Shown here: positions 439 through 34,223 of the stretch, in pieces
Layout of the letters: the number at the start of each line of letters is the position of its first letter
Numbering within the stretch: position 1 is the first letter of the stretch
NCBI GenBank assembly: GCA_016191085.1
Contig: JACPPJ010000031.1
Coordinates: 261 to 64,260 of the forward strand
Direction: 5' to 3'
Length of the DNA stretch: 64,000 nucleotides
DNA from: Acidobacteriota bacterium
GTDB taxonomy: Bacteria > Acidobacteriota > Terriglobia > 2-12-FULL-54-10
The notes under the pieces: generated by a model
Databases searched by the model: none
What the model was told of the DNA's origin: nothing
Seen by the model: the letters and a program-made list of their open reading frames with translations, nothing else
Made by a program: the position numbers and the translations under genes

Positions 439-450
439 ATGGTCCTCTCA

Positions 451-640: not shown

Positions 641-891
641 GTGTTGCTCTCTTGCGCAAGAATATCACAGGCGTACTCCTTACCCTCAATCCGCCTCCGG
701 CTTAGCTCCTACTCTGGCCACTGAACAGTCACTTGAATATATTGCTGGTTCACTGGTCGATTTCATCTAATCGTTGTGGATAAATGGCGGTGGAATTTCA
801 GTTGACCCCGTGCACGTCGATAGGGCACTATTTTCTCAGAGTCGTTCTGTTTCATTGGCCTACTCAGTTAAGTGGCGGAGTGAATAACCGT

Positions 892-2082: not shown

Positions 2083-3263
2083 CATTGAGCTTGCGTTGCG
2101 GACCGCTGTTGCTGGCAGCCTCATTGGTTTTGGTCAACGGCCTGTTCGGAAGCCTGGCGGCGCAGAACACACCTGCTGCGCGTGCCGTCACGAAGCGATC
2201 TGTCACAGCCAACAAAGCCATAACGGCTGCGGAATTCTCGCGCATAGTGCGCTATTTTTCCGAAGAAGAGGGTAGCTTCTTTTCCGACAACTTCGTCTCA
2301 AACGAGACGGCTTATCTGCACATCGTAGACAAGCTGAAGGAACTGGGAGTAGCCGGCGGAGCCTACATCGGAGTCGGCCCGGAGCAGAACTTCACTTATA
2401 TCGCCAAGGTCCGGCCCAAGATCGCGTTTATCGTTGATATCCGCCGCGGTGCCATGATTCAGCACCTCATGTACAAGGCCCTATTCCACATGGCGTCGGA
2501 TCGTGTGCACTTTCTGTCTCTCTTGTTCAGTAAGCCGCTGCAAGGGGAGGCGCCGGGCCGCGATGCCTCGGCGACGGAGTTGGTGGACTACTTTAACAAT
2601 GTAGCCACGGAGGACAAGGCGTACGAGGAGACCTTGGCCGCTCTCCGCAACATGCTCGAGCAAGATTTCGAGTTCCCCCTTTCCGCGCGTGACGGCCAGA
2701 TATTAGAGCACGTCTACAGCGCTTTTCAGCGTGGCAATTTAGATATCTCGTTCCGGTTTGCGGGAGCAATGGGCGCTTGGTACGGCGGGTTTCCAACTCT
2801 GCGTGATCTGATGCTGGAGAAAGACCTCCGCGGCAAACAAGGGAATTTTTTGGCCAGCGAGAATGATTTTGGGTTCATCCGCGACCTGCACCGCAAGAAC
2901 CGCATCATCCCCGTGGTGGGCGACTTCGCCGGCTCGAAAGCTTTTGCAGTGCTGGGTGATTATCTGAAAGAGAACGGCTACACCGTTTCGGCATTCTATG
3001 TTTCCAACGTGGAGCAGTTTCTGTTCGGCGATCGCGTATTCGGCGCGTTTGCAGAAAACGTGCGCAGGCTGCCGATTAACGAGCGCAGCGTGATCATTCG
3101 CTCGCTGCGGGTCGGAGCGGGTCACCCCGCCCATGTTCCAGGCCATCGCATGGCCACCGTCTTGCAGAAGATGCAAGTCTTCCTCGACGATTTCGACGCA
3201 GGCCGCTTCCCAGATTATTGGAGCCTCGCCGTCACCGATTTCATCACCGGCAACGAACCATGA
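2079..3263 (+). CDS. Secreted hypothetical protein, tandem paralog 2
   Basis: A 394-aa ORF with an ATGA start/stop overlap with the upstream paralog. It has a hydrophobic N-terminal signal and is collinear with paralog 1 along its whole length. Confidence 0.75.
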   Translation: MTLSLRCGPLLLAASLVLVNGLFGSLAAQNTPAARAVTKRSVTANKAITAAEFSRIVRYFSEEEGSFFSDNFVSNETAYLHIVDKLKELGVAGGAYIGVGPEQNFTYIAKVRPKIAFIVDIRRGAMIQHLMYKALFHMASDRVHFLSLLFSKPLQGEAPGRDASATELVDYFNNVATEDKAYEETLAALRNMLEQDFEFPLSARDGQILEHVYSAFQRGNLDISFRFAGAMGAWYGGFPTLRDLMLEKDLRGKQGNFLASENDFGFIRDLHRKNRIIPVVGDFAGSKAFAVLGDYLKENGYTVSAFYVSNVEQFLFGDRVFGAFAENVRRLPINERSVIIRSLRVGAGHPAHVPGHRMATVLQKMQVFLDDFDAGRFPDYWSLAVTDFITGNEP

Positions 3264-3380
3264 GGGCAGCGGAACCCGCGGCCCCGAGGTAATGGGGCTC
3301 GTGCCTCTACCCTGTGAGCTACGGCGGCGTGTCTGCGCGCTCCGAGCTGGATTCAAACCAGCGCGCACGAGATTCACATA

Positions 3381-3791
3381 ATGCGATCTGGGTTTGCTAA
3401 ATTTGTCGTCCGGGTACAGGCGACAATATTTGCGGCGCACGCTGTGGTGTATTGGACCTGGACAAGCTTTTCATCCTCGGCCGACCCTCCAGGAATTTCC
3501 AGCGTCCAACTCATATTTGTACTGCTGTCGGTCAGCTTCGTCAGCGGATCGTTTCTGGCTTGGCGGTATTCTCACGTGATCGCAAGAGTGTTCTACAAGA
3601 TTGCGGCCGTGTGGCTGGGTGCGCTGAATTTTTGCTTTATAGCGGCCTGCTGCTGGCTGATCTATGGCGCGGCACTGGTCTTTGGATACCGCCCCAGCCA
3701 GCCTGTTGTTGCGCAGGTACTCTTTGGCTTGGCAATCGCTGTCAGCATCTATGGCGTCGTGAACGCCGCCTGGACGCGCGTCCGCATGTGA
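3381..3791 (+). CDS. Multi-pass membrane protein; corresponds to the N-terminal membrane module of membrane-anchored metallophosphoesterases
   Basis: A 136-aa ORF with about 4 hydrophobic segments. It ends in ATGTGA, which overlaps a GTG at 3788 that opens the phosphoesterase frame. Confidence 0.55.
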   Translation: MRSGFAKFVVRVQATIFAAHAVVYWTWTSFSSSADPPGISSVQLIFVLLSVSFVSGSFLAWRYSHVIARVFYKIAAVWLGALNFCFIAACCWLIYGAALVFGYRPSQPVVAQVLFGLAIAVSIYGVVNAAWTRVRM

Positions 3792-4516
3792 GCGTGCAAT
3801 TGCCGAACCTGCCCGAACCTTGGCGCGGCCGCGTGGCGGCTCTGGTGAGCGATACACATCTGGGCCACGTGAGGGGCCGTCGCTTCCTGCATCGGATCGT
3901 CAAGCTGTTGCGACGCACGCAGCCGGACGTCGTGTTCCTCGCCGGTGATATTTACGATGGCACCGCGGCTGATTGTGATCGTCTCGCCGAACCGTTGCGG
4001 GAGTTGAAGCCGCCCTTGGGCGTATATTACGTTACCGGAAATCATGAGGAGTTCACTGACCGCAGCAAATACATGAGAGCTATTGCACGAACCGGGGTGC
4101 GATTGTTGAACAATGAGAAGCTGGAACTCGATGGCCTGCAAATCGTGGGTATGCACTACTCCGAGTCGGTGAACCGGGATATGTTCCGGGCTGTGCTAAA
4201 TCGGGTTGCCCTGGACCGCAGCCGTCCCGTCGTGTTGCTGAAGCATTCGCCCGATCGTTTGAAAATGTCCGAACAGGCAGCCATATCGCTGGTGCTTTGC
4301 GGCCATACGCATGGCGGCCAGTTCTTTCCGTTTACCAGAATCACCAAGCACATCTATGGGCAATTCGTGCACGGCCTAAATCGCATTGGAAACCTGGTAG
4401 TGTTTACTTCGGTTGGCGCAGGCACATGGGGTCCGCCATTGCGCATCGGACCCAATCCGGAAATTGTGCTGATCCGTTTCGAGAATAGCTACGCGCAACA
4501 GCCCGGAACGTTGTAA
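3788..4516 (+). CDS. Calcineurin-like metallophosphoesterase (catalytic module)
   Basis: Motifs seen: LVSDTHLGH, FLAGDIYDG, VTGNHE, LLKHSP and CGHTHGGQ. The ORF-track frame opens further upstream (3452), but that stretch overlaps the membrane ORF. A GTG at 3788 is the plausible start if the gene is genuinely separate. Confidence 0.75.
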   Translation: MSVQLPNLPEPWRGRVAALVSDTHLGHVRGRRFLHRIVKLLRRTQPDVVFLAGDIYDGTAADCDRLAEPLRELKPPLGVYYVTGNHEEFTDRSKYMRAIARTGVRLLNNEKLELDGLQIVGMHYSESVNRDMFRAVLNRVALDRSRPVVLLKHSPDRLKMSEQAAISLVLCGHTHGGQFFPFTRITKHIYGQFVHGLNRIGNLVVFTSVGAGTWGPPLRIGPNPEIVLIRFENSYAQQPGTL

Positions 4517-4565
4517 ACTGTTTTGATTAGCGGAAAAGCAATTCCACATCCAACAGGGGTGAACG

Positions 4566-5522
4566 ATGCGAACACAAACTCCGAAGCCTGTGCAAGTGTG
4601 CGGAAAACACGAATCCAGGGATCTGAGACGCGGCGTACTGTTTGTCGCGGCGGCGATGATTCTGATGGCGGGCCAATCTCTGGTGGCGCAGCAATTGACC
4701 ATACCGCCTCGCGCCAACAACACCAATTACAGGAAGGAGCCATTCCGCATCATCGGGGATATTTATTGGGTGGGACATACTGAAATCGGCGCGTATCTGA
4801 TCAAGACGCCTGCCGGTTCGATTTTGATGGACACCACTTCGCTTGAGCAGTCGGAGTGGGTGCGGGAAAACCTCGATAAGCTGGGCGTGAAGATGAAGGA
4901 CATCAAAATCCTCATTAACTCTCACGAGCATGCCGAGCACATGGCTGGACTCGCCAAGTTCAAACAACTGAGCGGAGCGAAGCTGATCGCGTCGAAGCCG
5001 ACTGCCGACCAACTCGCCGTTGGCGGGCGCACCGATTTCCGCGAGAACGGGAGCGAACAGTATCCGCCTGTCAAAGCCGATCAGATCATTGAAGACGGCG
5101 GCAAGGTACAGCTGGGCGGCACGGTCCTGACTGCACACCTCACGCCAGGACATAGCAAAGGCTGCACCACCTGGACGACTACGGTTGAAGAAGACGGCAG
5201 GAAATACAATGTGGTGTGGGTTTGCGTCATGACCCCTTCCGGGCCCGATCGCGCGCCGCTCATTAATAACGCAAAGTATCCCAATATCGTAGAAGACTAC
5301 CAGCGTTCGTTCGCTTTTTTGACATCGATCCCATGCGATGTATGCCTGTACACTCGCGCAACCAACATGAAGCTGGCCGAAAAGCAGGCGCGCTTGGAGA
5401 AAGGCGAGAAACCCAATCCATTCATTGATCCCGCCGGTTGCAAACCCATCATAAAAGAAGCCGAAGACCTGTTCAACAAACTCCTCGCAGAGCAGCGCAC
5501 AGCCGCAAAGATCCAGGAATGA
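4566..5522 (+). CDS. Metallo-beta-lactamase-fold protein, subclass-B3-like, with non-canonical metal-ligand motif
   Basis: B3-like layout: YWVGHTEIGAYLIKTPAGSILMD, INSHEHAEHMAG, LTPGHSKGCTTW. There is an N-terminal signal-like segment. The motif is H-E-H-A-E-H instead of H-x-H-x-D-H. Confidence 0.7.
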   Translation: MRTQTPKPVQVCGKHESRDLRRGVLFVAAAMILMAGQSLVAQQLTIPPRANNTNYRKEPFRIIGDIYWVGHTEIGAYLIKTPAGSILMDTTSLEQSEWVRENLDKLGVKMKDIKILINSHEHAEHMAGLAKFKQLSGAKLIASKPTADQLAVGGRTDFRENGSEQYPPVKADQIIEDGGKVQLGGTVLTAHLTPGHSKGCTTWTTTVEEDGRKYNVVWVCVMTPSGPDRAPLINNAKYPNIVEDYQRSFAFLTSIPCDVCLYTRATNMKLAEKQARLEKGEKPNPFIDPAGCKPIIKEAEDLFNKLLAEQRTAAKIQE

Positions 5523-5858
5523 CGGGGATTCACTCCAGAAGGAGATTCTCTGTTGAAAAAGTGGGAAAGAAAGTAGAGGGTACTCCGAGAAGAACCGGGA
5601 TAGCACTGGGGTAAGTAGTGGAGCAAGGATGGGATCAGTTGCGTGAGCAAATCCTGGAGCAGTTGATCGAGGCTTTACTGATAGCGGAACGGGATCGGCG
5701 GTTGCGGGAGCGGAAACAGGCCGCGAGAAGGTATAGATACGGTGCGCAAAGGCTGGCAGACCCTGTGGGGCGAACTGCGGCAGGTAAGAGTACCGCTCCT
5801 GCGAGGCAGCATCCAGCTTTCAACAGAATTGCTGGACAATGCCAGAACACCCGGCCAG

Positions 5859-5888
5859 TTGGCGAAACCCTGCCGTTTCTGTTACAAT
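5859..5888 (+). promoter_or_regulatory. Candidate sigma-70-type promoter of rpmB
   Basis: TTGGCG (5859-5864), a 17-18 nt spacer, then TGTTACAAT with TACAAT at 5883-5888. It lies about 25 nt upstream of the rpmB ATG. Confidence 0.35.
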
Positions 5889-5911
5889 TTTGCTTCACTC
5901 GGGAGATTGAT

Positions 5912-6100
5912 ATGGCAAAGGTTTGTGAAGTCTGCGGCAAAGGACCGCGGTTCGGGAACAAGATCAGCCACGCTCACAACGTCAGCAAGCGGCGCTGGAA
6001 TGTGAACCTGCATCTCGTGCGCGCTATCGTCAATCGTGGTCATGCCTGGATACGCGTGTGTACCTCCTGTATCCGCTCGGGCAAGATTGTCAAAGCTTAA
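5912..6100 (+). CDS. rpmB: 50S ribosomal protein L28
   Basis: MAKVCEVCGKGPRFGNKISHAHNVSKRRWNVNLHLVRAIVNRGHAWIRVCTSCIRSGKIVKA is a typical L28. The ORF-track extension back to 5618 is not supported. Confidence 0.9.
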   Translation: MAKVCEVCGKGPRFGNKISHAHNVSKRRWNVNLHLVRAIVNRGHAWIRVCTSCIRSGKIVKA

Positions 6101-6222
6101 GCGTTTTTTCGCCCAACTATCAGAACTACCTTTTTTTACGCCCACGAGAAACCGGCGCGGACGGCGCACCGTCCAACTTCAATAGTTACTTGAATTAACC
6201 GCCGCTTCGGCCAAGAGGTCCT

Positions 6223-7620
6223 ATGCTCCGACTGTTACGCTTCTCTTCCGCGAGTGCACTCGTGTTGGTACTCAGCTCACTCCTTGGCGTGGGCACGTGG
6301 GTATCGCTGACCGGCAACACCCTACCCGCTGTCATGTACCGCGCGCCTTTGCCGCCTACAGGGTCTCCGCAACTGGTTTCTGTTGGGCTGCTGCCGCAGG
6401 CCCAAACCGAGGGCGAGATGTGCGAGTGGGTTCCGGCCAGCAGCCAGGAGCGGCTCGTGGCTATACCGCAGGAGAGGATGGCACGGACATCCACCGCAGC
6501 GGCCGAAGAAACCGGCCGAACCGCCGTATTGATAGAGCGCGCGCCACAACGAGTCATCAAGGATCCGTATCCGACCTACAGCGCGGTAGCGCTGGACCCC
6601 ATTTCGCGTGAAGTCGTTTTGCAAGACGAGAATCTGTTCCAGATCGTGACGTTCGATCAGAACGCCAACACTCCTCCAACGGCAAACTTCACCGAGCCCA
6701 AGCGCATCATCGGCGGCCACAACACGAAAATCGAATTCAACTGCGCGCTCTACGTTGATCCAAAGAACGGAGACATTTACTCCGTCAACAATGACACGCT
6801 GGACACGCTGGTCATCTTTGACCGCTCTGTCAGAGGAGACCAACCGCCCACACGCGAGCTCCGCACGCCCCATCGCACCTACGGAATTGCCGTCGATGAA
6901 GGGCAGAATGAGATGTACCTTACCGTGCAGGACCCGCCCATGGTGGTGATCTACGACAAGAACGCGATAGGCAACGACAAGCCGAAGAGAGTGATTCGCG
7001 GCAACAAAACCCGCCTGCAAGATGCGCACGGAATCGCGCTTAACAAGAAGGGCGGCTTGATATACGTGGCCAATTATGGAAACTACGCCCAGTACAGAGA
7101 CGGCGGCGGCAACAACCTGCCTGGGCGCAGCGATGACGACATGATCCGGGGCAGCGGCAAGTTTGCACCGCCGTCGATTGCCGTTTTCAAAATCGATGCC
7201 ATGGGCGACACGGCTCCCATCGGCCTGATCCAAGGGCCAAAGACAATGCTCAATTGGCCCGCTCACCTGTTCTATGATGAACAGCACCAGGAGCTTTTCG
7301 TGGCCAATGACGGAGACCATTCGGTGTTGGTCTTCCGGTCCATGGATACCGGGGACGTCGCTCCTACTCGTTTCATCAAAGGACCAAAGAGTCAGATAAA
7401 GAATCCGACGGGCGTGGCGGTGGATTCGAAAACGGACGAGCTGTTCGTCTCTAATATGGGCAACCATTCAGCCACCGTTTACAAGCGCACCGCGTCGGGC
7501 GATGTGCCGCCGATCCGAACCATCCGCAGCGCGCCCTCAGGTGCACCCGCTCTCCAGATCGGCAATCCCGGTGCGGTAGCATACGACACCAAACGCGACC
7601 AAATACTGGTTCCCAACTGA
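6223..7620 (+). CDS. Secreted beta-propeller repeat protein (NHL/YncE/lactonase-like blades), N-terminal part; ends at an in-frame TGA (locus A)
   Basis: It has a signal/anchor N-terminus and repeated blades of the form PxRxIxGxxTxLxxPxGxAxDxxxxELxVxNxxxxSxxVF. It is paralogous to 30424..31875 and 32049..33416. Confidence 0.8.
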   Translation: MLRLLRFSSASALVLVLSSLLGVGTWVSLTGNTLPAVMYRAPLPPTGSPQLVSVGLLPQAQTEGEMCEWVPASSQERLVAIPQERMARTSTAAAEETGRTAVLIERAPQRVIKDPYPTYSAVALDPISREVVLQDENLFQIVTFDQNANTPPTANFTEPKRIIGGHNTKIEFNCALYVDPKNGDIYSVNNDTLDTLVIFDRSVRGDQPPTRELRTPHRTYGIAVDEGQNEMYLTVQDPPMVVIYDKNAIGNDKPKRVIRGNKTRLQDAHGIALNKKGGLIYVANYGNYAQYRDGGGNNLPGRSDDDMIRGSGKFAPPSIAVFKIDAMGDTAPIGLIQGPKTMLNWPAHLFYDEQHQELFVANDGDHSVLVFRSMDTGDVAPTRFIKGPKSQIKNPTGVAVDSKTDELFVSNMGNHSATVYKRTASGDVPPIRTIRSAPSGAPALQIGNPGAVAYDTKRDQILVPN

Positions 7621-7641
7621 GTAGCTCACCCGCAGATTGCG

Positions 7642-7665
7642 GCCTTCGCCAGGATGGCGAAAGGC
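7642..7665 (+). promoter_or_regulatory. Candidate recoding (SECIS-like) hairpin 3' of the TGA at 7618-7620
   Basis: Sequence gcc-ttcgcca-GGA-tggcgaa-a-ggc: 10 bp with a 1-nt bulge and apical GGA, with the loop 31 nt after the TGA. Equivalent hairpins sit at the same offset in the two paralogs. Confidence 0.4.
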
Positions 7666-8475
7666 GGAGATGCTCCCCAGCGCGTGATATTCGGCCAGGC
7701 TACCAACCTCAGCCGAACCATGCATGACATCCGCTACAGCGCCAAGCGCGATGAGATCTATGTGACCAATCCGTTCGGACAAGCGGTCTTAGCGTTCCGC
7801 GGCACCGCAAGCGCCAACGAGGCGCCGATCCGCGTCATCCAAGGACCCAAAACGCAGCTCGGCAGCGAGGATACCCTGGAGATCGATGATATACACGATG
7901 AGATCCTGATTCCCACCGAGGATCGGATCCTGGTTTATCCAATTGATGCGAACGGCGACATCGCGCCGCTGCGCGTCATCAAGCCGGAGAACAATTACTG
8001 GAGAACTGGCGGCGGCATCGCTGTGGATCCTATCCACAACGTATTAGTGACCGACGGAACACTGCCCGGAGAGGAAACCATTGCCAGCGGACGCGCTGCG
8101 CGCGCCAATCGCCGCGATAGTATTCTGATCTTCGACCGCACCGCAAACGGCGAGGTCAAGCCGCTGCGTGTCATCCGAGGGCCTCGGACCGGCATCAAAG
8201 CGATACGCCAGATGCAGATCTATCCGAAGAACGGGTATATCGTGATCGCGCAGATAACCGATGGCGCTATCGCGGAGCCGGAGGGGACGTTTGTCGGTGT
8301 CTGGAGCATTAACGACAGCGGAGATGTCCCGCCGCGCTGGAAGATTGAAGGCAAGCCTGGCAATGGTATGAAGAAACCGCGTGGCGTCGCATTGAACCCA
8401 AAGCACAAGGAATTAATCGTCTCCGATATGCGACTCAACTCCGTCCTGACGTACTATTTCCCGGAGATGTTCTAA
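7654..8475 (+). CDS. Beta-propeller repeat protein, C-terminal part (locus A); conserved coding sequence actually begins at 7621, right after the TGA
   Basis: The ORF-track ATG is at 7654. The 33 nt upstream (VAHPQIAAFAR) are in frame and conserved in the paralogs. The blades continue through to the C-terminal YYFPEMF. Confidence 0.8.
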   Translation: MAKGGDAPQRVIFGQATNLSRTMHDIRYSAKRDEIYVTNPFGQAVLAFRGTASANEAPIRVIQGPKTQLGSEDTLEIDDIHDEILIPTEDRILVYPIDANGDIAPLRVIKPENNYWRTGGGIAVDPIHNVLVTDGTLPGEETIASGRAARANRRDSILIFDRTANGEVKPLRVIRGPRTGIKAIRQMQIYPKNGYIVIAQITDGAIAEPEGTFVGVWSINDSGDVPPRWKIEGKPGNGMKKPRGVALNPKHKELIVSDMRLNSVLTYYFPEMF

Positions 8476-8488
8476 CGCCGCCGCGACC

Positions 8489-8516
8489 CGGAAGTAAATT
8501 AAGCTCAGTTCCGGGC
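8489..8516. terminator. Hairpin between convergent genes (possible bidirectional terminator)
   Basis: A 7-bp stem cccggaa…ttccggg lies between the stop at 8475 (+) and the relA/spoT stop at 8527 (-). Only a weak T tract is present. Confidence 0.3.
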
Positions 8517-8526
8517 GAGCAAAAAT

Positions 8527-10758
8527 TTAGAGGGACGGCGCCGATTTCGATGGCGGGGCTTTGTGGATGCGTTCCACGTCGCGCACTCCTTGGATCTTCC
8601 GCATAGCGGTTATGAGGCGCTCCAGGTGCTTTTTATCCTCGATATCTAATGTCAACGCAATGGTGGCATCGCCGCCGCTCCCTACTTTGGTTTCAATCTT
8701 TCGAATGTTCGTCTTCTCGGAGATGGCCGCCGTCAATTCTTTTAGCAAACCGGGACGGTCTTTGGTGCGTATAGCAAGCTGCACCGCGTAAGCCTCTTCG
8801 CCGGAGGCCCACTCGACCTCGATCCTCCGCTCCACCTCGTAAAGCAGGCTCTGTACGTTTGGGCAGGTCTTGGAATGCACGGCCACGCCTTTGCCGCGCG
8901 TGATGTATCCAACAATTTCCTCGCCGCGGATCGGCTCGCAACATCTTGCGCGATACACCAGCATGTTGCCGTAACCCTTCACCTGAATGGCACCATCTTT
9001 CGATATGCCCAGCGCCTCGCTAAAGGTTTTGGCCAGCGACCTTTTCTCTGGAACATCTTCATGAACGTTTTCGGGGAAGATTTTCGCCAGTACCTGCCGG
9101 GGAGAGATCTTGCCGAAGCCCACGGCGCAGTAAAGCTCGTCAGCTTTTGGCCACCCTAAAGAGTGCGCCGCCTTGAGCAGATCATCCGCAGGAACCTTCT
9201 TCCAAGCGACGTGGAAACGGCGGCTCTCCTTTTCGAGCAGCTTCTTTCCGAGCTCGATGGCATTGGCCTTTTCGTTAGTTGTAATCCAATGTTTGATCTT
9301 GTTTCGCGCGCGCGACGATTTGACAAACGCCAGCCAATCGCGGCTGGGGTGAGAGCCTTTCTGCGTGACGATCTCGGCGATGTCGCCGCTGCGTAGGCGA
9401 TGACGCAAGGGCACCAGCTTCCCATTCACGCGAGCGCCCGTGCAGGTGTTTCCCACTTCAGTGTGGATGGCGTATGCGAAATCCACGGTAGTGCCGTCGC
9501 GAGGTAATACGATGACTTTCCCCTTGGGTGTGAAGGTGTAAACCTCGTCCGGATACAGATCAATCTTCAGCGCAGAAAGGAATTCGGCCGGATCGGACAA
9601 CTCCTGCTGCCATTCGATCAACTGCCGCAACCAGGCCATGCTCTTTTCGTCGGCGGGCGATGAAGGGCCGCCCTCCTTGTATTTCCAATGCGCCGCGATG
9701 CCTTCCTCAGCGGTGCGGTGCATCTCTTTGGTCCGGATCTGGACCTCGAACGGCTGGCCGTTGCTGCCGATGACGGTTGTGTGCAGCGATTGATACAGGT
9801 TGGGCCGCGGCATGGCGATGAAGTCCTTGATGCGACCCGGTATGGGAGGCCACAAATGATGAATGACACCAAGCGCCGCATAGCAGTCATTCACGCTCTC
9901 CGTGATGATGCGCACGGCGAGCAGATCGTAGACCTGGTTCATCTCCGACCTTTGTCGCTTCATCTTTTGATAAATGCTATACAGCCGCTTGATGCGCCAA
10001 TCCACCGCGGCTTGAATGGCGTTTTCTTTTAACTTCTCGTCAATGGTGGAAGAGACTTCCTTCAGGAAATCCTCACTGGCCCGGCGCTTGGCTTCCACTT
10101 CGCCCTCGATCTCCTGATACGCGATGGGGTCAATGTAAGCGAAGGCGAGGTCCTCGAGCTCACCGCGGATCTTCCCCATTCCCATGCGGTGCGCCAGAGG
10201 CGCGTACAACTCGAGCGTTTCCTGCGCGATCAGCTTTTGCTTCTCCGGAGGCAAATACTGTAACGTGCGCATGTTGTGGAGCCGGTCGGCCAGCTTGACC
10301 AGGATCACCCGCAAGTCGTCAACCATGGCAAGCAGCATCTTGCGAACGTTGTCGGCCTGGCGCTGCTCTCTGGTAGTGAAATTCAGGCGGCTGATCTTGG
10401 TGACGCCTTCTACCAGGTGCGCGATTTCCTCACCGAATTTCTCGCGCAGTTCATCAACCGTTACGCTGGTATCTTCGACAACATCGTGCAGCAATGCAGT
10501 GGCGATGGTGGATACGTCCATGCGCAGGTCGGCAAGGATATGTGCCACTTCCAGGGGATGTGTCAGATACAGCTCGCCAGAGAGACGGACCTGCGACATG
10601 TGGTAATGTGCCGAGAATTGGTAGGCATGACGGAGCAGGTCGAGGTTCTCGTTCGGCCGGTTCCGCTTAATTTTTTTCAGCAGGTCGCGAAACTTCGTCA
10701 ATGTAAGAAGATTCGTTGAGAAGGCCTGCCGAAACGATGTTGGTAACGAGGTGGACAT
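8527..10758 (-). CDS. relA: Bifunctional (p)ppGpp synthetase/hydrolase, RelA/SpoT family
   Basis: 743 aa. It has an HD domain (HPLEVAHILADL…LLHDVVEDT), a RelA_SpoT synthetase core, a TGS domain and a C-terminal ACT-like region. Confidence 0.95.
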   Translation of the reverse strand: MSTSLPTSFRQAFSTNLLTLTKFRDLLKKIKRNRPNENLDLLRHAYQFSAHYHMSQVRLSGELYLTHPLEVAHILADLRMDVSTIATALLHDVVEDTSVTVDELREKFGEEIAHLVEGVTKISRLNFTTREQRQADNVRKMLLAMVDDLRVILVKLADRLHNMRTLQYLPPEKQKLIAQETLELYAPLAHRMGMGKIRGELEDLAFAYIDPIAYQEIEGEVEAKRRASEDFLKEVSSTIDEKLKENAIQAAVDWRIKRLYSIYQKMKRQRSEMNQVYDLLAVRIITESVNDCYAALGVIHHLWPPIPGRIKDFIAMPRPNLYQSLHTTVIGSNGQPFEVQIRTKEMHRTAEEGIAAHWKYKEGGPSSPADEKSMAWLRQLIEWQQELSDPAEFLSALKIDLYPDEVYTFTPKGKVIVLPRDGTTVDFAYAIHTEVGNTCTGARVNGKLVPLRHRLRSGDIAEIVTQKGSHPSRDWLAFVKSSRARNKIKHWITTNEKANAIELGKKLLEKESRRFHVAWKKVPADDLLKAAHSLGWPKADELYCAVGFGKISPRQVLAKIFPENVHEDVPEKRSLAKTFSEALGISKDGAIQVKGYGNMLVYRARCCEPIRGEEIVGYITRGKGVAVHSKTCPNVQSLLYEVERRIEVEWASGEEAYAVQLAIRTKDRPGLLKELTAAISEKTNIRKIETKVGSGGDATIALTLDIEDKKHLERLITAMRKIQGVRDVERIHKAPPSKSAPSL

Positions 10759-10788
10759 AAATTAGAAGCGGCTACGGCCCCGCCCGCC

Positions 10789-10830
10789 CGGAAAAGAAAA
10801 AACCCTGAGAGGCACCAGCCCCTCAGGGTT
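10789..10830 (-). terminator. Rho-independent terminator after the tonB-exb-TPR operon
   Basis: On the minus strand, the aaccctgag…ctcagggtt 9-bp stem is followed by TTTTTTCTTTTCC. It lies directly downstream of the TPR gene stop at 10865. Confidence 0.55.
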
Positions 10831-10864
10831 CATTATAAGCCAGTAGCTACCGAGGAGAAGAGAC

Positions 10865-11662
10865 TTACCCCTGGAGAGTACCAGGTGCCTTGGCGGCCTT
10901 CTGCTTCTTGATCTCCAGTGTCTTGTCCATCCACGAATCAGCAGTCTTGAGGTCCGCGTCCCGCATTTCGGGCGAGTCCGCCAAGTCTGCCTTCTCGCGA
11001 TAGAGCAGGTTGAGATAAGCCATGGCATCGTCGTAATCGGGCCGCAGCTCAATGGCCTTGTTCAGCGAGTTCATGCCTTCTTCGATAAGAGGTAGGTTCC
11101 TCTCGGCGAGCGCCTGCCGCTCTTTAGCATCTTTGATGGCCTGGTCGGGTGGTATCTTCAACCGTGTCTTCAGCTCGATACGCGGTTGGTACGCCAGCGT
11201 CCAGTCGATCACTCCCACCGAGTACCAGGCTTCGGGATTGTTCGGATCCACCGCCAGCTGCCGCTTGTAATACTCTTTAGCCTCGTCCATCCGTTTCATC
11301 TGGAAGTACAGGTTCGCAATGCCGGTGATGCTGCCGACATTGTTGGGATCGTCCCGCAGGACCTCGTGAAATTCGGAGATGGCCTGCTCCGCGATCTTAA
11401 CGTTCTCTTCCTGCTCCGAACCAGGCACGTACTGATTGGCGTAAGCGGTGGCGAGATATAGCTTGGCATTCAGTAGCGTTGGATCGAGGTTTACCGCGCT
11501 TTTAAAGTGCTCAATGGCAAGCTGATATTTTCCCTCTTTATAAAACGCCACACCCTTATTCAGTTGATCTCTGGCTTGCAGTTTTGCACACCCGGAGGCG
11601 GACAGTAGCAGGCCAGCTACAATAGCGCATGCTAGCCACACGTTCTTTTTTAGTAAGTTCAT
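10865..11662 (-). CDS. TPR-repeat lipoprotein
   Basis: Lipobox signal (MNLLKKNVWLACAIVAGLLLSASGC) followed by multiple TPR-like repeats. It is the last gene of the tonB/exb operon. Confidence 0.8.
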   Translation of the reverse strand: MNLLKKNVWLACAIVAGLLLSASGCAKLQARDQLNKGVAFYKEGKYQLAIEHFKSAVNLDPTLLNAKLYLATAYANQYVPGSEQEENVKIAEQAISEFHEVLRDDPNNVGSITGIANLYFQMKRMDEAKEYYKRQLAVDPNNPEAWYSVGVIDWTLAYQPRIELKTRLKIPPDQAIKDAKERQALAERNLPLIEEGMNSLNKAIELRPDYDDAMAYLNLLYREKADLADSPEMRDADLKTADSWMDKTLEIKKQKAAKAPGTLQG

Positions 11663-11777
11663 CCTGAGACTCTCCGACTGAGAATTGCCCGTTGCGGCTG
11701 ACGGGCCTCCACAACTCAGCCGCCAGTCAGCCGTCGCTCGGCGGCTTTCGAGTGGCCACGTTCAATGGATTCCCCGC

Positions 11778-12203
11778 TTAGTTACCCTCTTCAAGTCTTT
11801 GAGTGATCAACCCGACCTTGTCTATGCCGGCGCCCTTGGCGATATCAATGACAGTGGCGACGGACGAGAACATGACGTCGGGATCACCCTTGACGAAGAT
11901 CACACGCTCGGCACGGGTTTTGAAAATATCAATCAACCTGGAGCCGAGTTGGTCAATCGTGACATCATCCTGGTTAATTTTCAGCCGGTTGTCTTTATCT
12001 ACCGAAACCACGACGGTACGGATATCCGGCTCATTTGCCTTATCTGCATTCGGATTGGGCTGGGGCACCAGCGCATCCAAACCTTTCGGGACCAAAGGGG
12101 TAATCACCATGAAGATGATCAGCAGAACCAACAAGACGTCGATGAGCGGCGTCATGTTGATATCTGAATTAACTCCCTTGTGCCCTCCGACTGCCATTGA
12201 CAT
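11778..12203 (-). CDS. exbD: Biopolymer transport protein ExbD/TolR
   Basis: 141 aa, with INMTPLIDVLLVLLIIFMV and a periplasmic domain typical of ExbD/TolR. Confidence 0.85.
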   Translation of the reverse strand: MSMAVGGHKGVNSDINMTPLIDVLLVLLIIFMVITPLVPKGLDALVPQPNPNADKANEPDIRTVVVSVDKDNRLKINQDDVTIDQLGSRLIDIFKTRAERVIFVKGDPDVMFSSVATVIDIAKGAGIDKVGLITQRLEEGN

Positions 12204-12309
12204 AACGATTCCTCCCTAATCTGGCCGCGCCTGGTGTGGTGAGCGGCGCCCACCCTGTAACCGGATAGGCGCGCGTTTAGCCAGGAGCGGAGCGGCAGCA
12301 CCCTGGCTC

Positions 12310-12747
12310 TTAAAGAGCCAGCCGTCTGGCCCTCTCTTCCACTTTCTCGGTGAGAAGCCCGAGTTGGTCTACGCCGGCGGACCGCACCTCGTCAACAGCT
12401 TTGACCACCGTTTCGAACTTAGCGCGCGCATCGCTCTTGATGTAGACGGTCTTGTCTATACGCTGCGAGATCATGTCGCGCACCTGGTTCGTCAGGTCTT
12501 CAAGTTTGATCTGGTCGCTGCCCAGGTAGATTCGGCCGTCGCGTGTAACAGCGACCACGACGGCGTCCTCTTTATCAGCGTCTGGCATAGAGCGCGGATT
12601 GGCGGATCTTGCCAAATCCACGCTAACGCCCTTTTGCAACATCGGAGTGACCACCATGAAGATGATCAGGAGCACCAGCATGACATCAACCATCGGCGTG
12701 ACGTTAATGTCAGAGGTCACATCCTTTAATTGTCTTCCGATTGCCAT
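12310..12747 (-). CDS. exbD: Biopolymer transport protein ExbD/TolR (second copy)
   Basis: 145 aa, with INVTPMVDVMLVLLIIFMV. It is a paralog of the downstream exbD. Confidence 0.85.
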   Translation of the reverse strand: MAIGRQLKDVTSDINVTPMVDVMLVLLIIFMVVTPMLQKGVSVDLARSANPRSMPDADKEDAVVVAVTRDGRIYLGSDQIKLEDLTNQVRDMISQRIDKTVYIKSDARAKFETVVKAVDEVRSAGVDQLGLLTEKVEERARRLAL

Positions 12748-12758
12748 GAAATACTCCC

Positions 12759-13499: not shown

Positions 13500-13636
13500 T
13501 TTCGGTTCTCCTCCTCAAGAGCCATTGGCTCCGTTGATTCTTGGCTCCGGCTCGCTGCTGGAATGGCGAGGACCGGTTTATTTTCGGATCGTGACCTAAA
13601 TACAACTGCCGCCCGGGGCCGCACTGCGCGTGACAA

Positions 13637-14368: not shown

Positions 14369-14614
14369 CTCGAGCTACCCTCTGCACCCTCCGAACGGGT
14401 GCCAGTGATTCAGACTCCAACTCTGCAGCGCCGCATTGCGGCATATCACTATTGCAACTCTAATTCACATTCGTCGATCTGTAAGAACCACTCTCCCGGG
14501 CAGGCCCAGCCGGAACCAACGACGCCACGGCTGAAAACTCGTATGGCACTGAACGGTCCCACAGAGTAATCCAAATTCCCGCGAATGGCAACAGGTCTTT
14601 TGCCCCGAGCGCAC

Positions 14615-29589: not shown

Positions 29590-30423
29590 TCAGAATATCT
29601 CCGGGAAGTGATACGTCATTACGGCATTGACGTATTTATCCGAGACAATTACTTCCTTAGTCTTTGGCACCACCGTGATGCCGCGCACCTGCCGCAGCAT
29701 CTGGTTCGGGCCTCCTATCATCCACCGCGGTGGAACGTCGCCGTTGTCGGTTTCACTCCACACGCCAACCCAGTTGTTGGGAGACGATTTCTCCCGGCTG
29801 GGCATTCCGGCCAGAATCATCTTTGTCGGCGGGTAGACGGTGATCAGGGCTGTGAGCAGGATCTTGCTTTTGGGACCGAAGATCTGCGCCTTGGGCTTGA
29901 CGTTGCCGTTGTCCGTCCGGTTGAAGATGAGAATGTGGCCGTTTCTGCCGCTCTCTACGGCGCGCTCGTCTCCCTTCCGGGGTCGCTGGCCCGAAGCAAT
30001 GAGCAGATTGTTGACCGGATCGACAGTCAGAGCAGTGGCGCCCAACATTGTGTCAGGCCCCTTGATGGTGCGGATCGGTTTCACATTGCCCTCAGCGTCA
30101 CTGGGAAAAACCAGGATGGTGTCCTCCAGCGGAATGAAGACCTCTTTGTGAATCGGATCGAGGGCGAGCCTCGCCGGAGTGGTCATCTGCGTATCGGGAC
30201 CCATGATGATGCGGATCGGCTTCTCGTCTCCGTTCGCACCGCCGCGGTAGGTCATGATCGCCTGGGCATAGAACTGCGGGATGACGATCTCATCCGTGAT
30301 GGGGTTGTAGGCCATGTCGTGGATCGTGCGGGTGATCGCCGAATTCTGACCTGCGATTGAACGGGTGGGCTTGGCATTTCCGTTCGCCAACCTGGCGAAT
30401 GCCGCGATCTGCGGATGAGCCAC
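29590..30423 (-). CDS. Beta-propeller repeat protein, C-terminal part (locus B); begins at the GTG directly abutting the upstream TGA
   Basis: It starts (V)AHPQIAAFARLANGNAKPTRSI…, is collinear with 7621..8475 and 33417..34223, and ends …YHFPEIF. Confidence 0.8.
   Translation of the reverse strand: MAHPQIAAFARLANGNAKPTRSIAGQNSAITRTIHDMAYNPITDEIVIPQFYAQAIMTYRGGANGDEKPIRIIMGPDTQMTTPARLALDPIHKEVFIPLEDTILVFPSDAEGNVKPIRTIKGPDTMLGATALTVDPVNNLLIASGQRPRKGDERAVESGRNGHILIFNRTDNGNVKPKAQIFGPKSKILLTALITVYPPTKMILAGMPSREKSSPNNWVGVWSETDNGDVPPRWMIGGPNQMLRQVRGITVVPKTKEVIVSDKYVNAVMTYHFPEIF
30373..30403 (-). promoter_or_regulatory. Candidate recoding (SECIS-like) hairpin 3' of the TGA at 30424-30426 (minus strand)
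   Basis: The minus-sense RNA reads ggcat-ttcgcca-GGU-tggcgaa-cggaa-atgcc: a 7-bp upper stem, a 5-bp lower stem and an apical GGU. Confidence 0.4.
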
Positions 30424-31875
30424 TCAGTTGGCGACGAGCAACTCGTCGCGCTTGCTGTCCCAGGTCAGCGTGTGCGGATTGCCCATCATGGGAGCCGGAG
30501 CCTCGATGGGCCCGCTGCGGATGACGCGCAGCGGCGGTGCATCGCCGGAAGCGCCCAGCTTGTACACGGTTGCCGTGTGGTTGCCGAAGTTGGCCACCCA
30601 GAGCTCCTGATTCTTCAGGTCAGCGAAAACGCTGGTCGGATTCTTGATCAACGTCTTGGGTCCCTTCAGGACACGGATCGGAGCCACATCGCCGTTCGCA
30701 TCAGCCTTGAACACCAGCACCGAATCCACCGGATCGTTCGCCACATACAACTCGCCGCGTTCATGATCAATGCTGAGCGCGGTGGGCCAGTTGAGCTGTG
30801 TGCGCGGTCCCTGGATGACCCGGATCGGCGGGGTATCCCAGCTAGCGTCGCGTGGATACACCGTAATGGAAGGCGGCATGAACTTGCCGGAGCCTGGCAC
30901 TGCATCGTTGCGGCCAACCGGCCAGTTGTCTCTGCCGATGCCGCGATTCAGCGTACCGCTGTACTTGCCGGATGCGGGCCGTTTGTGGACGTTTACCGAA
31001 CCCCAGTTGCTGACGTAAATCTGGTCCGTCTTGGGATTATATGCAATGCCATGGGGATCAGCCATGAGAGTACGCGGACCTTGCAGCGTACGAATGGGCG
31101 AGTCCTTACCCGTCGCCGTCTTTTTGAACGTCACCACGGCGGCATCGTCCTGGACGGTCAGCATCAACTCCTGCGTCCTCTCGTCCACCGCGACTCCAAA
31201 CGTGGCCATCGGCGTATTGAGATAGCGCGCCGGCTTAGCGTTGCCGTTTGCGCCGTGGGGAAACACAGCCATCTTGCCGAGCGTATCGTTATTCACGGCG
31301 TAGATGTCGCCGTTGGCGGGGTCGATATAGAGAGAGCATTGGAACTCGATCTCGGTATCCTCGCCGTGGATCATGCGCTTGGGCTCGCTCAGCTTGGCAT
31401 TGGGCGGAGTGTTCTCGAGGCGGTCATAAGCGACGATGCGAAACTTGTTCTCATCCGTCATGAGCACTTCATTGTGGATGGGGTCAACCGCAACGGCGCT
31501 GAAGGCACCCCAGGGGTCATTGATGACTCGGATCGGTTTCCGTCGTGACGCGGCGAGCTTTTCTGCTTCGGTCACATCCGCGGCGGGCGGCGCAAATTGC
31601 TGCTGGAATGAAGCGAACAATGACGAGTTGGCGGCGCTGGCCGGTTCCCACTCGCACCTTTCACCATCGGCTTGCGGCAGCGGCTCAACCGAAACTAATT
31701 GTGGCTGTCCTGTGGCCTTTTGTGCTGGTCTCAATTGACCGCCCGCGCCCCAGAGTACAACCGTAGCAATGAGCGCGAGGAGAGCTAATATGCCGAGTCC
31801 GCCCGCCCTGTTTCGAAACAAACGTACACGCGCCATTCGTATTCCTCCTTTAATCCCAGCCGCTCCGCTATTCAA
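30424..31875 (-). CDS. Secreted beta-propeller repeat protein, N-terminal part; ends at an in-frame TGA (locus B)
   Basis: 483 aa with a signal/anchor, the conserved QPQLVSVEPLPQADGERCEWEPAS segment and seven blade-like repeats. It ends …DSKRDELLVAN-TGA. Confidence 0.8.
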   Translation of the reverse strand: MNSGAAGIKGGIRMARVRLFRNRAGGLGILALLALIATVVLWGAGGQLRPAQKATGQPQLVSVEPLPQADGERCEWEPASAANSSLFASFQQQFAPPAADVTEAEKLAASRRKPIRVINDPWGAFSAVAVDPIHNEVLMTDENKFRIVAYDRLENTPPNAKLSEPKRMIHGEDTEIEFQCSLYIDPANGDIYAVNNDTLGKMAVFPHGANGNAKPARYLNTPMATFGVAVDERTQELMLTVQDDAAVVTFKKTATGKDSPIRTLQGPRTLMADPHGIAYNPKTDQIYVSNWGSVNVHKRPASGKYSGTLNRGIGRDNWPVGRNDAVPGSGKFMPPSITVYPRDASWDTPPIRVIQGPRTQLNWPTALSIDHERGELYVANDPVDSVLVFKADANGDVAPIRVLKGPKTLIKNPTSVFADLKNQELWVANFGNHTATVYKLGASGDAPPLRVIRSGPIEAPAPMMGNPHTLTWDSKRDELLVAN

Positions 31876-32048: not shown

Positions 32049-33416
32049 ATGCATTGCAATTCGTCTGGAAAGGCTCTTCTGACCATCGTCGCGGTTCTAA
32101 TCGCAACGGGCGGCTTGTGTCTGGTATCCGGAACTCAATTTCAATTCGGCAAAGACCGCCCCAACGGCCAGCCGCGATTGATTGCGATTGATCCGCTGCC
32201 GCAAGCCGACGGTGAGGTTTGTGAGTGGCAACCGGCGAGCTTCAGCGCGCCGCAGGGGCAGGCCGGCACATCCTCTCCCTCATCTGCAGCAGACGAGGCG
32301 AAGAAGTCGGAGGTGGAGAAGCGCAAACCAATCAGGACCATTCGCGACCCTTACGCGGCATACAGTTCCGTGGCAGTGGATCCCGTCCACAATGAGGTGG
32401 TGCTGACGGATGAGAACCTTTTCAACATTCTAGTTTACGACCGCCTGGCGAATACTCCTCCTAACGCCAAAATGACCGAGCCCAAACGCATGATCGGAGG
32501 GCTGAATACCAAAATTGAGTTTCAGTGCGGGCTCTACATCGACCCGACGAACGGCGATATTTTCGCAGTGAACAACGACACGGTGGACACGTTGGTCATC
32601 TTCAACCGGCAGGCCAAGGGCAATGTGCCGCCTACGCGCGAGCTGTACACTCCACATGGAACGTTCGGTATCGCCGTTGACGAGCAGGCTCAGGAAATGT
32701 ACTTGACGGTGCAGCACGACAGCGCGGTGGTGGTATACAAGAAGTACGCTACGAAAAATGACTCGCCTCTGCGCCTGTTGCAGGGCGACAATACCATGCT
32801 GGCAGACCCGCACGGCATCGCCGTTGATCCGAGGACCAATGTGATCTTCGTGGCCAATCACGGCGCGACTCACTCGGTGGATGGGAAACTGAGCGAACAC
32901 ACAAGGCGGCCGAATTTCCCCTTGGAGCGAGCGTTTGCCGTGCCCGGATCGGGCCGCAGCCTGCCTCCTTCCATCACCGTGTACGAAAAGAACGCGTCGG
33001 GCGACACCGCTCCGATACGCGTGATCTCCGGTCCGAACACACGAATGAATTGGCCCTCCGGCCTGGCCGTGGATTCTGATCGCGGCGAGCTTTACGTTGC
33101 AAACGATATGGATGATTCGATCCTGGTCTTCGACATCACTGCCGAAGGCGACGCGGCGCCGAAGCGCGTACTGAAGGGGCCGGCAACCATGCTCAAGAAT
33201 CCTACTGGCGTGTTCCTCGATACGAAGAACGACGAGCTGTGGTCCGCGAATTTCGGGAATCACACCGCGACAGTGTTCAAGCGGACGGCATCCGGCAACA
33301 CACCGCCGTTGCGCGTGATCCGCAGCGGACCTACCAACGAGCCATCGCTCGGCATCGGCAACCCGCACCCGATTGCGTACGACAGCAAGCGCGAGGAGAT
33401 TCTGGTTCCCAACTGA
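32049..33416 (+). CDS. Secreted beta-propeller repeat protein, N-terminal part; ends at an in-frame TGA (locus C)
   Basis: 455 aa with a signal/anchor, the QPRLIAIDPLPQADGEVCEWQPAS segment and blade repeats. It ends …DSKREEILVPN-TGA. It is transcribed divergently from locus B. Confidence 0.8.
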   Translation: MHCNSSGKALLTIVAVLIATGGLCLVSGTQFQFGKDRPNGQPRLIAIDPLPQADGEVCEWQPASFSAPQGQAGTSSPSSAADEAKKSEVEKRKPIRTIRDPYAAYSSVAVDPVHNEVVLTDENLFNILVYDRLANTPPNAKMTEPKRMIGGLNTKIEFQCGLYIDPTNGDIFAVNNDTVDTLVIFNRQAKGNVPPTRELYTPHGTFGIAVDEQAQEMYLTVQHDSAVVVYKKYATKNDSPLRLLQGDNTMLADPHGIAVDPRTNVIFVANHGATHSVDGKLSEHTRRPNFPLERAFAVPGSGRSLPPSITVYEKNASGDTAPIRVISGPNTRMNWPSGLAVDSDRGELYVANDMDDSILVFDITAEGDAAPKRVLKGPATMLKNPTGVFLDTKNDELWSANFGNHTATVFKRTASGNTPPLRVIRSGPTNEPSLGIGNPHPIAYDSKREEILVPN

Positions 33417-34223
33417 GTGGCGCACCCGCAGATCGCGGTCTTCGCCAGGATGGCGGATGGAAACGCGGCGCCCACTCGAAAGATTGAAGGACAGAAAACT
33501 CTCCTCGGACGCACCATGCACGCGATCGCCTACGATGAGGTTCACGATGAGTTCATGGTCCCGCAACAGTTCGCCCAGGCAATTCTGACTTTCCGCGGCG
33601 CGGCAAGGGGCGAAGAGGCTCCGGTGCGCGTCATTCAAGGCTCTAAAACCCAGCTTGTCTCCCTGGACCGGCTGGCCTACGACCCCGTGCATGGAGAAAT
33701 CTTCGTGCCCGAAGGTGAAAAGGTACTGGTGTTTCCGCGCGCCGCCAACGGCAACGTTGCTCCCGTGCGCGTGCTGGGCGGCAAGGGCTCCTCATTACGC
33801 GCCAGCGCTGCTGCCGTGGACACAGTGCGTAATCTGCTGGTCGTGATGGGAGGCGAGCGAAACGATCCGCGGTTTGAGATTTACAACCGCACCGATGAAG
33901 GCAACGCTAAGCCCCTGCGTGTGATTGGCGGCCCCAAGAGCGGGTTCCGCCAACTGGGCGGCCCATTTGCCGTGTATCCGCCGAAGGGCTGGATCATCGC
34001 TTCGGATCGCGGACACGGAGAGCTGGTTTCCGACATAGCGTACGTGGGCGTCTGGAGTGTGGAAGACAACGGCGATGTGCCGCCCCGCTGGAGGTTCGGC
34101 GGACCGAACGGAGTGTTGAAGATGCCCCGCGGTATAACCCTTGATCCCAAGAACAAGAACGTCCTTGTCAGCGATAAGCGTCTGAATGCGGTGATGACTT
34201 TCGCCTTCCCAGAGCTGTTTTAG
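33417..34223 (+). CDS. Beta-propeller repeat protein, C-terminal part (locus C)
   Basis: It starts at the GTG immediately after the TGA, reading (V)AHPQIAVFARMADGNAAPTRKI…, and ends …FAFPELF. Confidence 0.8.
   Translation: MAHPQIAVFARMADGNAAPTRKIEGQKTLLGRTMHAIAYDEVHDEFMVPQQFAQAILTFRGAARGEEAPVRVIQGSKTQLVSLDRLAYDPVHGEIFVPEGEKVLVFPRAANGNVAPVRVLGGKGSSLRASAAAVDTVRNLLVVMGGERNDPRFEIYNRTDEGNAKPLRVIGGPKSGFRQLGGPFAVYPPKGWIIASDRGHGELVSDIAYVGVWSVEDNGDVPPRWRFGGPNGVLKMPRGITLDPKNKNVLVSDKRLNAVMTFAFPELF
33435..33466 (+). promoter_or_regulatory. Candidate recoding (SECIS-like) hairpin 3' of the TGA at 33414-33416
   Basis: Sequence gcg-gtc-ttcgcca-GGA-tggcgga-tggaaa-cgc: a 7-bp upper stem including one G-U pair, an apical GGA and a short lower stem. 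Confidence 0.35.

Follow-up and report, generated by a model that had tools for sequence, protein, structure and literature searches.

Probable selenocysteine insertion at an in-frame UGA in a family of tandem NHL propeller proteins of Acidobacteriota

We have analyzed a 64,000-nucleotide stretch of DNA from an Acidobacteriota bacterium (GenBank assembly GCA_016191085.1, contig JACPPJ010000031.1, positions 261 to 64,260), here called the window, with a G+C content of 57.5%. It contains three paralogous genes, termed loci A, B and C, each of which is interrupted by one TGA codon in frame. From comparison of sequences we consider it very probable that each is a single selenoprotein gene in which the internal TGA encodes selenocysteine (Sec). 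An earlier reading made from the sequence only had proposed for locus A a protein of about 750 codons whose synthesis requires decoding of UGA, with Sec as the leading candidate. The alternation of TGA with Cys codons among relatives, a covarying downstream hairpin of the bacterial selenocysteine insertion sequence (bSECIS) type, linkage to sel genes in a related genome and a structural model of a Cys homolog all agree with that proposal.

In the mechanism that we propose, a ribosome would reach the in-frame UGA (codon 466 in A), and a hairpin 26 nt downstream would recruit SelB-GTP together with Sec-tRNA(Sec). Sec would be inserted and translation would go on to the real stop. The predicted product begins with a helix, as a signal or anchor, and continues through a flexible linker, in which one Cys is conserved, to two NHL-type propellers of six blades each; Sec is in the sequence N-U-V-A-H-P.

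The in-frame TGA in the window loci and their relatives

The three loci and their internal TGA codons are as follows, in window coordinates.
6223..8475, + strand: locus A, one gene of 750 codons with a single internal TGA and a TAA end, from translation of the window DNA
7618..7620, + strand: TGA of locus A, read as Sec at residue 466 on the basis of aligned-codon counts and Cys in homologs
29590..31875, − strand: locus B, paralog sharing the architecture of A, one frame with one internal TGA
30424..30426, − strand: in-frame TGA of locus B, read as a Sec codon and followed by VAHPQIAAFAR
32049..34223, + strand: locus C, paralog divergent from B, a single frame with one TGA
33414..33416, + strand: in-frame TGA of locus C, read as a Sec codon and followed by VAHPQIAVFAR

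Two open reading frames (ORFs) in locus A, 6223..7620 and 7654..8475, are in phase, and translation of 6223-8475 bears out the earlier statement that the TGA at 7618-7620 is the sole break between them. The 33 nt that bridge the TGA and the second ORF (GTA GCT CAC CCG CAG ATT GCG GCC TTC GCC AGG) translate to VAHPQIAAFAR. This peptide was said to be common to the paralogs, and is indeed seen as VAHPQIAAFAR in B and VAHPQIAVFAR in C; the junction reads AAC TGA GTN GCN CAY CCG CAG ATY GCG in all three. Nor are the candidate internal start codons conserved, again as proposed. The codon after the TGA of locus A is GTA, and ATG 7654 is replaced by TTG in the aligned sequence of locus B. TGA is the ordinary stop for 15 of the 34 Pfam-supported or long genes of the window, so the genetic code is not reassigned there, which is what the sequence-only reading had held.

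Inspection by eye places AAGAGG 4 nt upstream of the locus A ATG. The real start of locus B is probably an ATG 13 codons into an ORF that begins with TTG. Loci B and C lie head to head (29590-34223) with a gap of about 170 nt, and an endonuclease V gene (28745-29587, minus strand) starts almost directly after the stop of B (29590-29592). An antisense ORF of 377-420 codons faces each propeller gene, at 6322-7467 (−), 30415-31548 (+) and 32430-33692 (−). Such ORFs recur opposite the homologs, forming cluster 2 in our clustering of ORFs, and are probably a by-product of codon composition, not genes.

We examined the codon aligned with the TGA in 157 related loci. Of these, 77 come from species-representative genomes (from the best 80 of 170 confirmed matches) and 80 from metagenomes, retrieved with a Cys-type query; such sampling favors sequences near the query. 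The genome loci have TGA in 94 copies and TGC in one, and the metagenome loci have TGA in 68, TGC in six and TGT in two. Over the whole set there are therefore 162 TGA codons and nine TGC or TGT, with no TAA and no TAG; inclusion of the three window genes brings TGA to 165, an agreement far beyond chance. As an internal control we took the codons that end these genes, which are TGA in 61, TAG in 60 and TAA in 35. A codon that truly terminates translation drifts between these three. That TGA is never exchanged for TAA or TAG at the internal site, with Cys as the sole common alternative, is the classical signature of Sec.

The same alternation is found in the proteins. A search with the fused sequence returned two populations, one of about 465 residues ending at the TGA, and the other of about 700-770 residues spanning the whole query. 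Full-length Cys homologs are 42-58% identical to locus A over the entire length. Among 27 aligned full-length homologs 26 have Cys at the TGA column, within ILVPN-C-VAHPQIA. Orthologs had been named in the sequence-only reading as a check on its proposal, and the relatives are either single polypeptides with Cys at this column or have TGA there. We considered whether the full-length Cys proteins could be database conversions of U to C. Their DNA has TGC or TGT at the site, and we discarded the idea. Cys genes nearest to one homolog, P0020, are 74-79% identical to TGA-type genes (L084-L088), indicating that recent switches from Sec to Cys have occurred inside the family.

These counts also bear on the possibility that the genes are pseudogenes, or that the TGA is an error of assembly or sequencing. 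Only the presence of the stop codon speaks for this. The same codon occupies the same column in the three window copies and 162 related copies, both halves are under protein-level conservation, and there are no other stops or frameshifts. This explanation is effectively refuted, and we give it a negligible probability.

A covarying hairpin downstream of the UGA

We numbered the RNA from the U of the UGA as nt 1, and applied RNAalifold to 151 unique TGA-type sequences. The resulting hairpin has nt 26-33 paired with nt 39-46 around the loop A-GGN-U (nt 34-38), which becomes a GGN triloop if its A and U pair as well. A smaller proximal hairpin precedes it. In the window the elements are as follows, with minimum free energies (MFE).
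7643..7664, + strand: SECIS-like hairpin of locus A, stem CCUUCGCC(A) / (U)GGCGA(A)AGG, apical loop GGA closed by A-U; MFE −10.4 kcal/mol, and covariation
7630..7642, + strand: proximal hairpin of locus A, CCGC-AGAUU-GCGG, directly abutting the main hairpin; alignment columns 13-25
30381..30414, − strand: locus B, proximal hairpin (30414-30402) and SECIS-like hairpin (30401-30381, loop A-GGU-U); main hairpin −8.8 and both −14.2 kcal/mol
33426..33459, + strand: locus C, proximal hairpin (33426-33438) and SECIS-like hairpin (33439-33459, loop A-GGA-U); main hairpin −8.4 and both −14.3 kcal/mol

The bSECIS model of Zhang and Gladyshev has an apical loop of 3-9 nt, G at loop positions one and two, an upper stem of 4-16 bp, a distance of 16-37 nt from the UGA and an MFE of −7.5 kcal/mol or lower (PMC13188914). 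The main hairpin agrees with it, having a stem of 8-9 bp and a loop A-GGN-U that begins 30-31 nt past the UGA, and the energies in A, B and C lie below the cut-off. Across the 151 copies the MFE of the main hairpin is −11.2 ± 2.1 kcal/mol. The proximal hairpin, at 13 nt, is too near the UGA for the bSECIS model.

Differences between the copies had been described as mainly third-position changes. This holds in general but requires refinement, as several synonymous sites immediately after the TGA are frozen. In 96 copies the codons of the main hairpin include Phe TTC in 94, Ala GCC in 92, Arg AGG, not CGN, in 89 and Ala GCG in 93. All four synonyms are in use at Ala codons 3 and 18, which lie outside the hairpin. 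The proximal hairpin is similarly frozen, with CCG at codon 5 in 95 of the 96 and GCG at codon 8 in 90. A constraint on the RNA is therefore added to that on the protein.

Covariation is clearest for the pair 27-45, which is found in all four Watson-Crick forms (AU 37, GC 25, UA 25 and CG 20). It joins two wobble positions, and is therefore free of protein-coding constraint. These nucleotides are paired in 110 of the 151 sequences, compared with 53 ± 5 when columns are shuffled, and none of 10,000 shuffles reached 110. On a neighbor-joining tree of the flanking protein, there were no fewer than 47 changes at column 27 and no fewer than 39 at column 45, and 74% of copies are still paired; for control column pairs the figure is 20-41%. 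In a count of pairs over 150 sequences, 94.3% of cells are paired against 34-57% with slid partners. Double changes occur at eight pairs, where 1.8 ± 0.6 are expected from shuffles (0 of 500). Individual compensated copies include C32A with G40U (L004:9240), C30U with G42A (L033:3947 and L134:4643), and G31C with C41G (L152:1080), the last at the expense of amino-acid changes. In the proximal hairpin, helix 1 is 94.3% paired with double changes at two pairs, and the copy at L152:1080-1139 (minus strand) has the double change G15C/C23G.

TGA-type genes always keep seven to nine of the nine pairs. Five of six ancient Cys-type genes (L074, L158, L160, L162, L163 and L164) retain just four to six; the Arg codon is CGG, CGU or AGA in five of the six, and several have Ser or Asp in place of Ala. 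A clade converted recently to Cys retains eight or nine of the nine. The hairpin thus decays where it is no longer needed, in the ancient Cys-type genes. A covariance model of the 60 nt following the TGA finds exactly the A, B and C sites in the window at 72-79 bits, all three being in its training set (B 78.9 and C 75.1 bits); the next best match in the window scores 12.5 bits.

Selenocysteine machinery, protein architecture and alternative readings

We scanned 1.4 Mb of DNA fetched around the relatives using ARAGORN and simple motifs. One locus, L054, lies on a 1.57 Mb contig of the Terriglobia metagenome-assembled genome (MAG) MFD03726.bin.1.138 and has a cluster of sel genes within positions 1-18133, confirmed by Pfam. 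Its relevant features are as follows.
2129-2224, − strand: tRNA-Sec, found by ARAGORN
2258-4213, − strand: SelB, with GTP_EFTU, SelB beta-barrel and SelB winged-helix domains
7563-10136, + strand, and 12230-10167, − strand: two TGA-type genes of the family, between the sel genes
12328-13623, − strand: SelD, with AIRS and AIRS_C domains
13403-14872, + strand: SelA, with a SelA domain at 528 bits

The sel cluster encloses members of the family, so organisms that carry the family can decode Sec. In a second relative, L094, a SelD motif at the contig edge adjoins another TGA-type gene, an assignment made at the level of the motif only. The L054 cluster also has an ORF with CxxCH motifs typed as a dihaem protein, a transglutaminase-like gene, and a gene combining CarboxypepD_reg with a Vgb-lyase-like propeller.

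The N-terminal parts of the proteins match Pfam NHL (PF01436) at 38.6, 34.2 and 36.7 bits in A, B and C respectively, against a cut-off of 20; matches to the lactonase/SGL propeller families are borderline. Two further features of locus A lie in this part.
6223..6312, + strand: N-terminal hydrophobic segment (MLRLLRFSSASALVLVLSSLLGVGTWVSL), a putative signal peptide or membrane anchor
6421..6423, + strand: codon of conserved Cys67 in the motif CEW, a nearly invariant alignment column

The hydrophobic segment suggests export or membrane anchoring. The Cys67 column reads CEW or CQW and corresponds to C65 in the Cys homolog P0006. A C-x-aromatic motif lies about 405 residues ahead of the Sec column in at least 121 of 167 family genes, and its cysteine is a candidate partner or resolving cysteine for Sec.

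An AlphaFold model was made for P0006, which is 53% identical to A, using an alignment of 49 sequences (predicted local distance difference test score 87.9, predicted template-modeling (TM) score 0.82). In the model a helix at residues 5-39 is followed by a low-confidence linker containing C65, and then by twelve four-stranded blades. These are predicted to form two six-bladed NHL propellers, at residues 100-404 and 415-711. The Sec-equivalent C449 comes immediately after the strand 443-448 (ILVPN) and ahead of the strand 455-459. This would place the Sec site in the loop between the third and fourth strands of blade 7, the first of the second propeller. Since C449 lies between two strands of one blade, a stop at this point cuts the blade and leaves the downstream ORF short of three strands. 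The earlier claim that the TGA falls inside a propeller blade is consequently upheld by the model. Foldseek comparison with the PDB gave only generic tandem WD/YWTD propellers with a TM score of about 0.3, and a sequence-profile search of the PDB gave only weak NHL matches (TRIM3, TRIM2, Brat, SOQ1 and NHLRC2).

A number of observations weigh against the assignment of Sec. ARAGORN finds no tRNA gene in the 64-kb window, hence no tRNA-Sec, and a Pfam scan finds no SelA, SelB or SelD among 30 further ORFs there. The one formate-dehydrogenase-like gene noted there lacks an in-frame TGA, and no second selenoprotein gene was recognized in the window, where other in-frame TGA candidates were not examined. 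There is no relevant Rfam match, either in a gathering-threshold search of the whole window or in a permissive search of 7560-7760. The hairpin overlaps the conserved peptide FARLA, and its conservation is therefore partly at the protein level, although this does not apply to the covariation at wobble positions. In 88 of 96 copies the codon next to the TGA is GTG, a possible initiator. Lastly, one homolog (P0005, 725 amino acids, from a Joint Genome Institute (JGI) metagenome) has Trp at the Sec/Cys column, in VPN-W-VAHPQIA. On the matter of Rfam, bacterial SECIS elements are to our knowledge generally not modeled there. The Trp codon of P0005 is one base from TGA, and may reflect either a genuine TGG variant or a difference in sequencing.

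The frequent GTG would be expected if each locus were two genes, with a stop at the TGA and re-initiation at the adjacent GTG or at ATG 7654, giving two polypeptides and perhaps a split propeller; gene callers and GenBank do annotate two ORFs. Yet the next codon is GTA or GTC, neither of them an initiator, in locus A and seven other copies, and no Shine-Dalgarno-like sequence lies ahead of the TGA. The Val is equally conserved in the Cys-type single polypeptides, so that GTG is merely a Val codon. Two genes would moreover require a stop that is never TAA or TAG while the true stops interchange freely, and a break that falls within a blade of the P0006 model, and would leave the covarying hairpin and the adjacency of sel genes unexplained. 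We regard this arrangement as extremely unlikely.

The Trp of P0005 instead favors a read-through independent of SelB, where the hairpin would stimulate suppression of the UGA by a near-cognate tRNA (Trp, Cys or Arg) and an ordinary residue would be inserted. Downstream hairpins can stimulate read-through in other systems. Against this, homologs that lack the TGA have Cys instead (26 of 27 proteins, and all nine non-TGA codons), the hairpin has the loop and spacing of a bSECIS element, and two genes of the family lie inside a cluster of tRNA-Sec, selB, selD and selA. Read-through of this kind is in our judgment very unlikely, and insertion of Sec remains the reading that we favor.

Relation to known proteins, distribution and candidate function

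The decoding mechanism appears to be the canonical bacterial one. The paradigm of a SECIS within a coding region is E. coli fdhF, and the consensus bSECIS model is summarized in PMC13188914. Like the bacterial selenoproteins of this kind, the family has a UGA followed by a small stem-loop with G in the loop, Cys homologs, and linkage to sel genes in a relative. It differs in its fold, which is a tandem beta-propeller and neither thioredoxin-like nor of molybdopterin type, and in the extra small hairpin that follows the UGA ahead of the main one. As a rule Cys homologs greatly outnumber Sec forms (PMC13188914), whereas in the close relatives sampled for the window family TGA is the more frequent state. 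This predominance of TGA over Cys among sampled relatives is unusual for a selenoprotein, as are a propeller fold and the apparent export.

With the NHL propellers (PF01436; Brat/TRIM-NHL, NHLRC2 and the lumenal domain of SOQ1) the window protein shares NHL matches, four-stranded blades and six blades per propeller. In contrast to these it has two propellers in tandem and an N-terminus of bacterial export type, and none of these proteins is known to contain Sec. JGI labels for family members refer to the seven-bladed propellers of YncE and 6-phosphogluconolactonase, with which there is a common beta-propeller fold and weak profile matches. We rejected membership of these families, as the scores are 20-26 bits against cut-offs of 370-400 and the model is six-bladed, not seven-bladed; the label is generic. 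Other predicted selenoproteins outside the thioredoxin fold are present in the 2026 catalogue of selenoprotein families, namely the TonB-dependent receptor of FCYXU type, the ExtKL multihaem cytochrome and the GSU2204/MtrB-type barrel, which, judged from their names alone, are probably extracytoplasmic. Their folds and motifs are unrelated to those of the present family. They occur mainly in anaerobic lineages of Deltaproteobacteria type, whereas the present family has its center in MAGs of Terriglobia, Bryobacterales and Solibacteraceae.

By the names in their records, the hosts of the family are Terriglobia, Solibacteraceae, Bryobacteraceae/Bryobacterales, Ca. Sulfopaludibacter, three Ca. 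Binatia MAGs and one Verrucomicrobiia MAG, and a Cys-type gene occurs also in Vicinamibacterales. Copy number can be high: three in the 64-kb window, at least nine TGA sites in the complete Terriglobia chromosome OZ240237.1 and at least 11 in the MAG B32T1B5. A profile search of 1.84 billion representatives (a 50%-identity library) gave 2,675 proteins at E ≤ 1e-30, generic NHL proteins included. Among the best 150 matches some two dozen stop at profile position 453 or a few positions from it (22 exactly at it), five start at 455 or 456, and about fourteen span the site. The clustering of match ends at the Sec column indicates that split annotation is systematic. In GenBank the N-terminal half of the window gene is MBI2816682.1, a 'hypothetical protein' of 465 residues (locus tags HYX72_*).

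We found no earlier account of the family. A 2026 review of 119 prokaryotic selenoprotein families and subfamilies has no NHL, propeller or lactonase entry in its Table 1 and nowhere uses these words (PMC13188914), and the main text of the deep-Sep paper mentions no such family. NCBIfam release 20 has no model for it, lactonase/YncE models giving the 20-26 bits noted above, and no Pfam or NCBIfam selenoprotein model covers it. In a literature that was mostly non-subscription we found no description of an NHL, propeller or Acidobacteria selenoprotein family, although automated screens may hold unnamed members. The family therefore appears to be new. On balance we lean towards the broader view that this is an uncatalogued, exported tandem-NHL selenoprotein family in which Sec prevails among the sampled close relatives, with at least 9-11 Sec paralogs per genome in Terriglobia of soil and groundwater.

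The neighbors of A, B and C are unrelated to each other. Upstream of A are a metallo-beta-lactamase (MBL)-fold gene (4566-5522) and rpmB; an endonuclease V gene follows B and a universal stress protein (Usp) gene follows C. Clustering of ORFs in the flanks of 165 loci gave no universal partner, each recurrent neighbor being present in a minority. Barrels resembling TonB-dependent receptors lie near the family gene in 30 of the loci, and Amidohydro_3 proteins in 17. In 15 there is a methyltransferase, hydrophobic at its N-terminus and usually just downstream, and in seven an MBL-fold protein resembling that at 4566-5522. A dihaem protein with two CxxCH motifs accompanies the family gene in 19 loci, in every case as its immediate neighbor on the other strand. 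Examples of its ORF are as follows.
L054, 7323-7835, − strand: dihaem ORF
L094, 2186-2710, − strand: dihaem ORF
L144: dihaem ORF

The ORF has about 150-180 residues, a hydrophobic N-terminus, CxxCH motifs 62 residues apart and a marginal Pfam match to cytochrome c.

In our interpretation Sec would serve for catalysis or metal binding in an extracytoplasmic redox enzyme, perhaps together with the N-terminal Cys. A fuller assignment can be offered only tentatively: an extracytoplasmic redox or metal-dependent enzyme having an active site of Sec466 and His469 (U-x-x-H), perhaps resolved by Cys67. The dihaem protein may be an electron-transfer partner of the propeller protein, and in some lineages a c-type cytochrome of this kind possibly works together with the propeller selenoenzyme.

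Other parts of the window were also noted. The operon at 35096-39228, resembling NuoF and NuoG/FdhA, was considered as a companion selenoprotein and rejected for want of an in-frame TGA. Its NuoF-like gene spans 35096-36559, and the NuoG/FdhA-like molybdopterin gene (36352-39228) overlaps this by some 200 nt in a different frame. Three universal stress protein genes and a zinc alcohol dehydrogenase flank this region (34554-42433). By eye, a long RelA/SpoT-like ORF lies downstream of A, and the C-terminal third of the ORF at 5618-6100 resembles ribosomal protein L28, its long N-terminal extension probably being untranslated. DUF7790 is present in two adjacent paralogous genes (784-2082 and 2079-3263), which are followed by a calcineurin-like phosphoesterase gene.

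Three selenoprotein families were recorded for Acidobacteria in a 2006 survey, and another source lists three selenoprotein genes in one acidobacterial test genome. If our reading is correct, some Acidobacteriota would be among the more selenoprotein-rich bacteria, and nine or more Sec paralogs of one family per genome would require estimates of selenium demand to be revised for soil and groundwater bacteria. Thousands of database entries for the family would be halves of genes. Sec in the loop of an exported propeller, beside a conserved His and with a distant conserved Cys, would be a new type of site, and would bring new selenoenzyme chemistry to the propeller scaffold, possibly in a periplasmic redox reaction linked to cytochrome c. 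The family would also constitute a natural experiment in SECIS evolution, with about 150 divergent copies, recent conversions of Sec to Cys in which the hairpin is kept, and old Cys lineages in which it has decayed.

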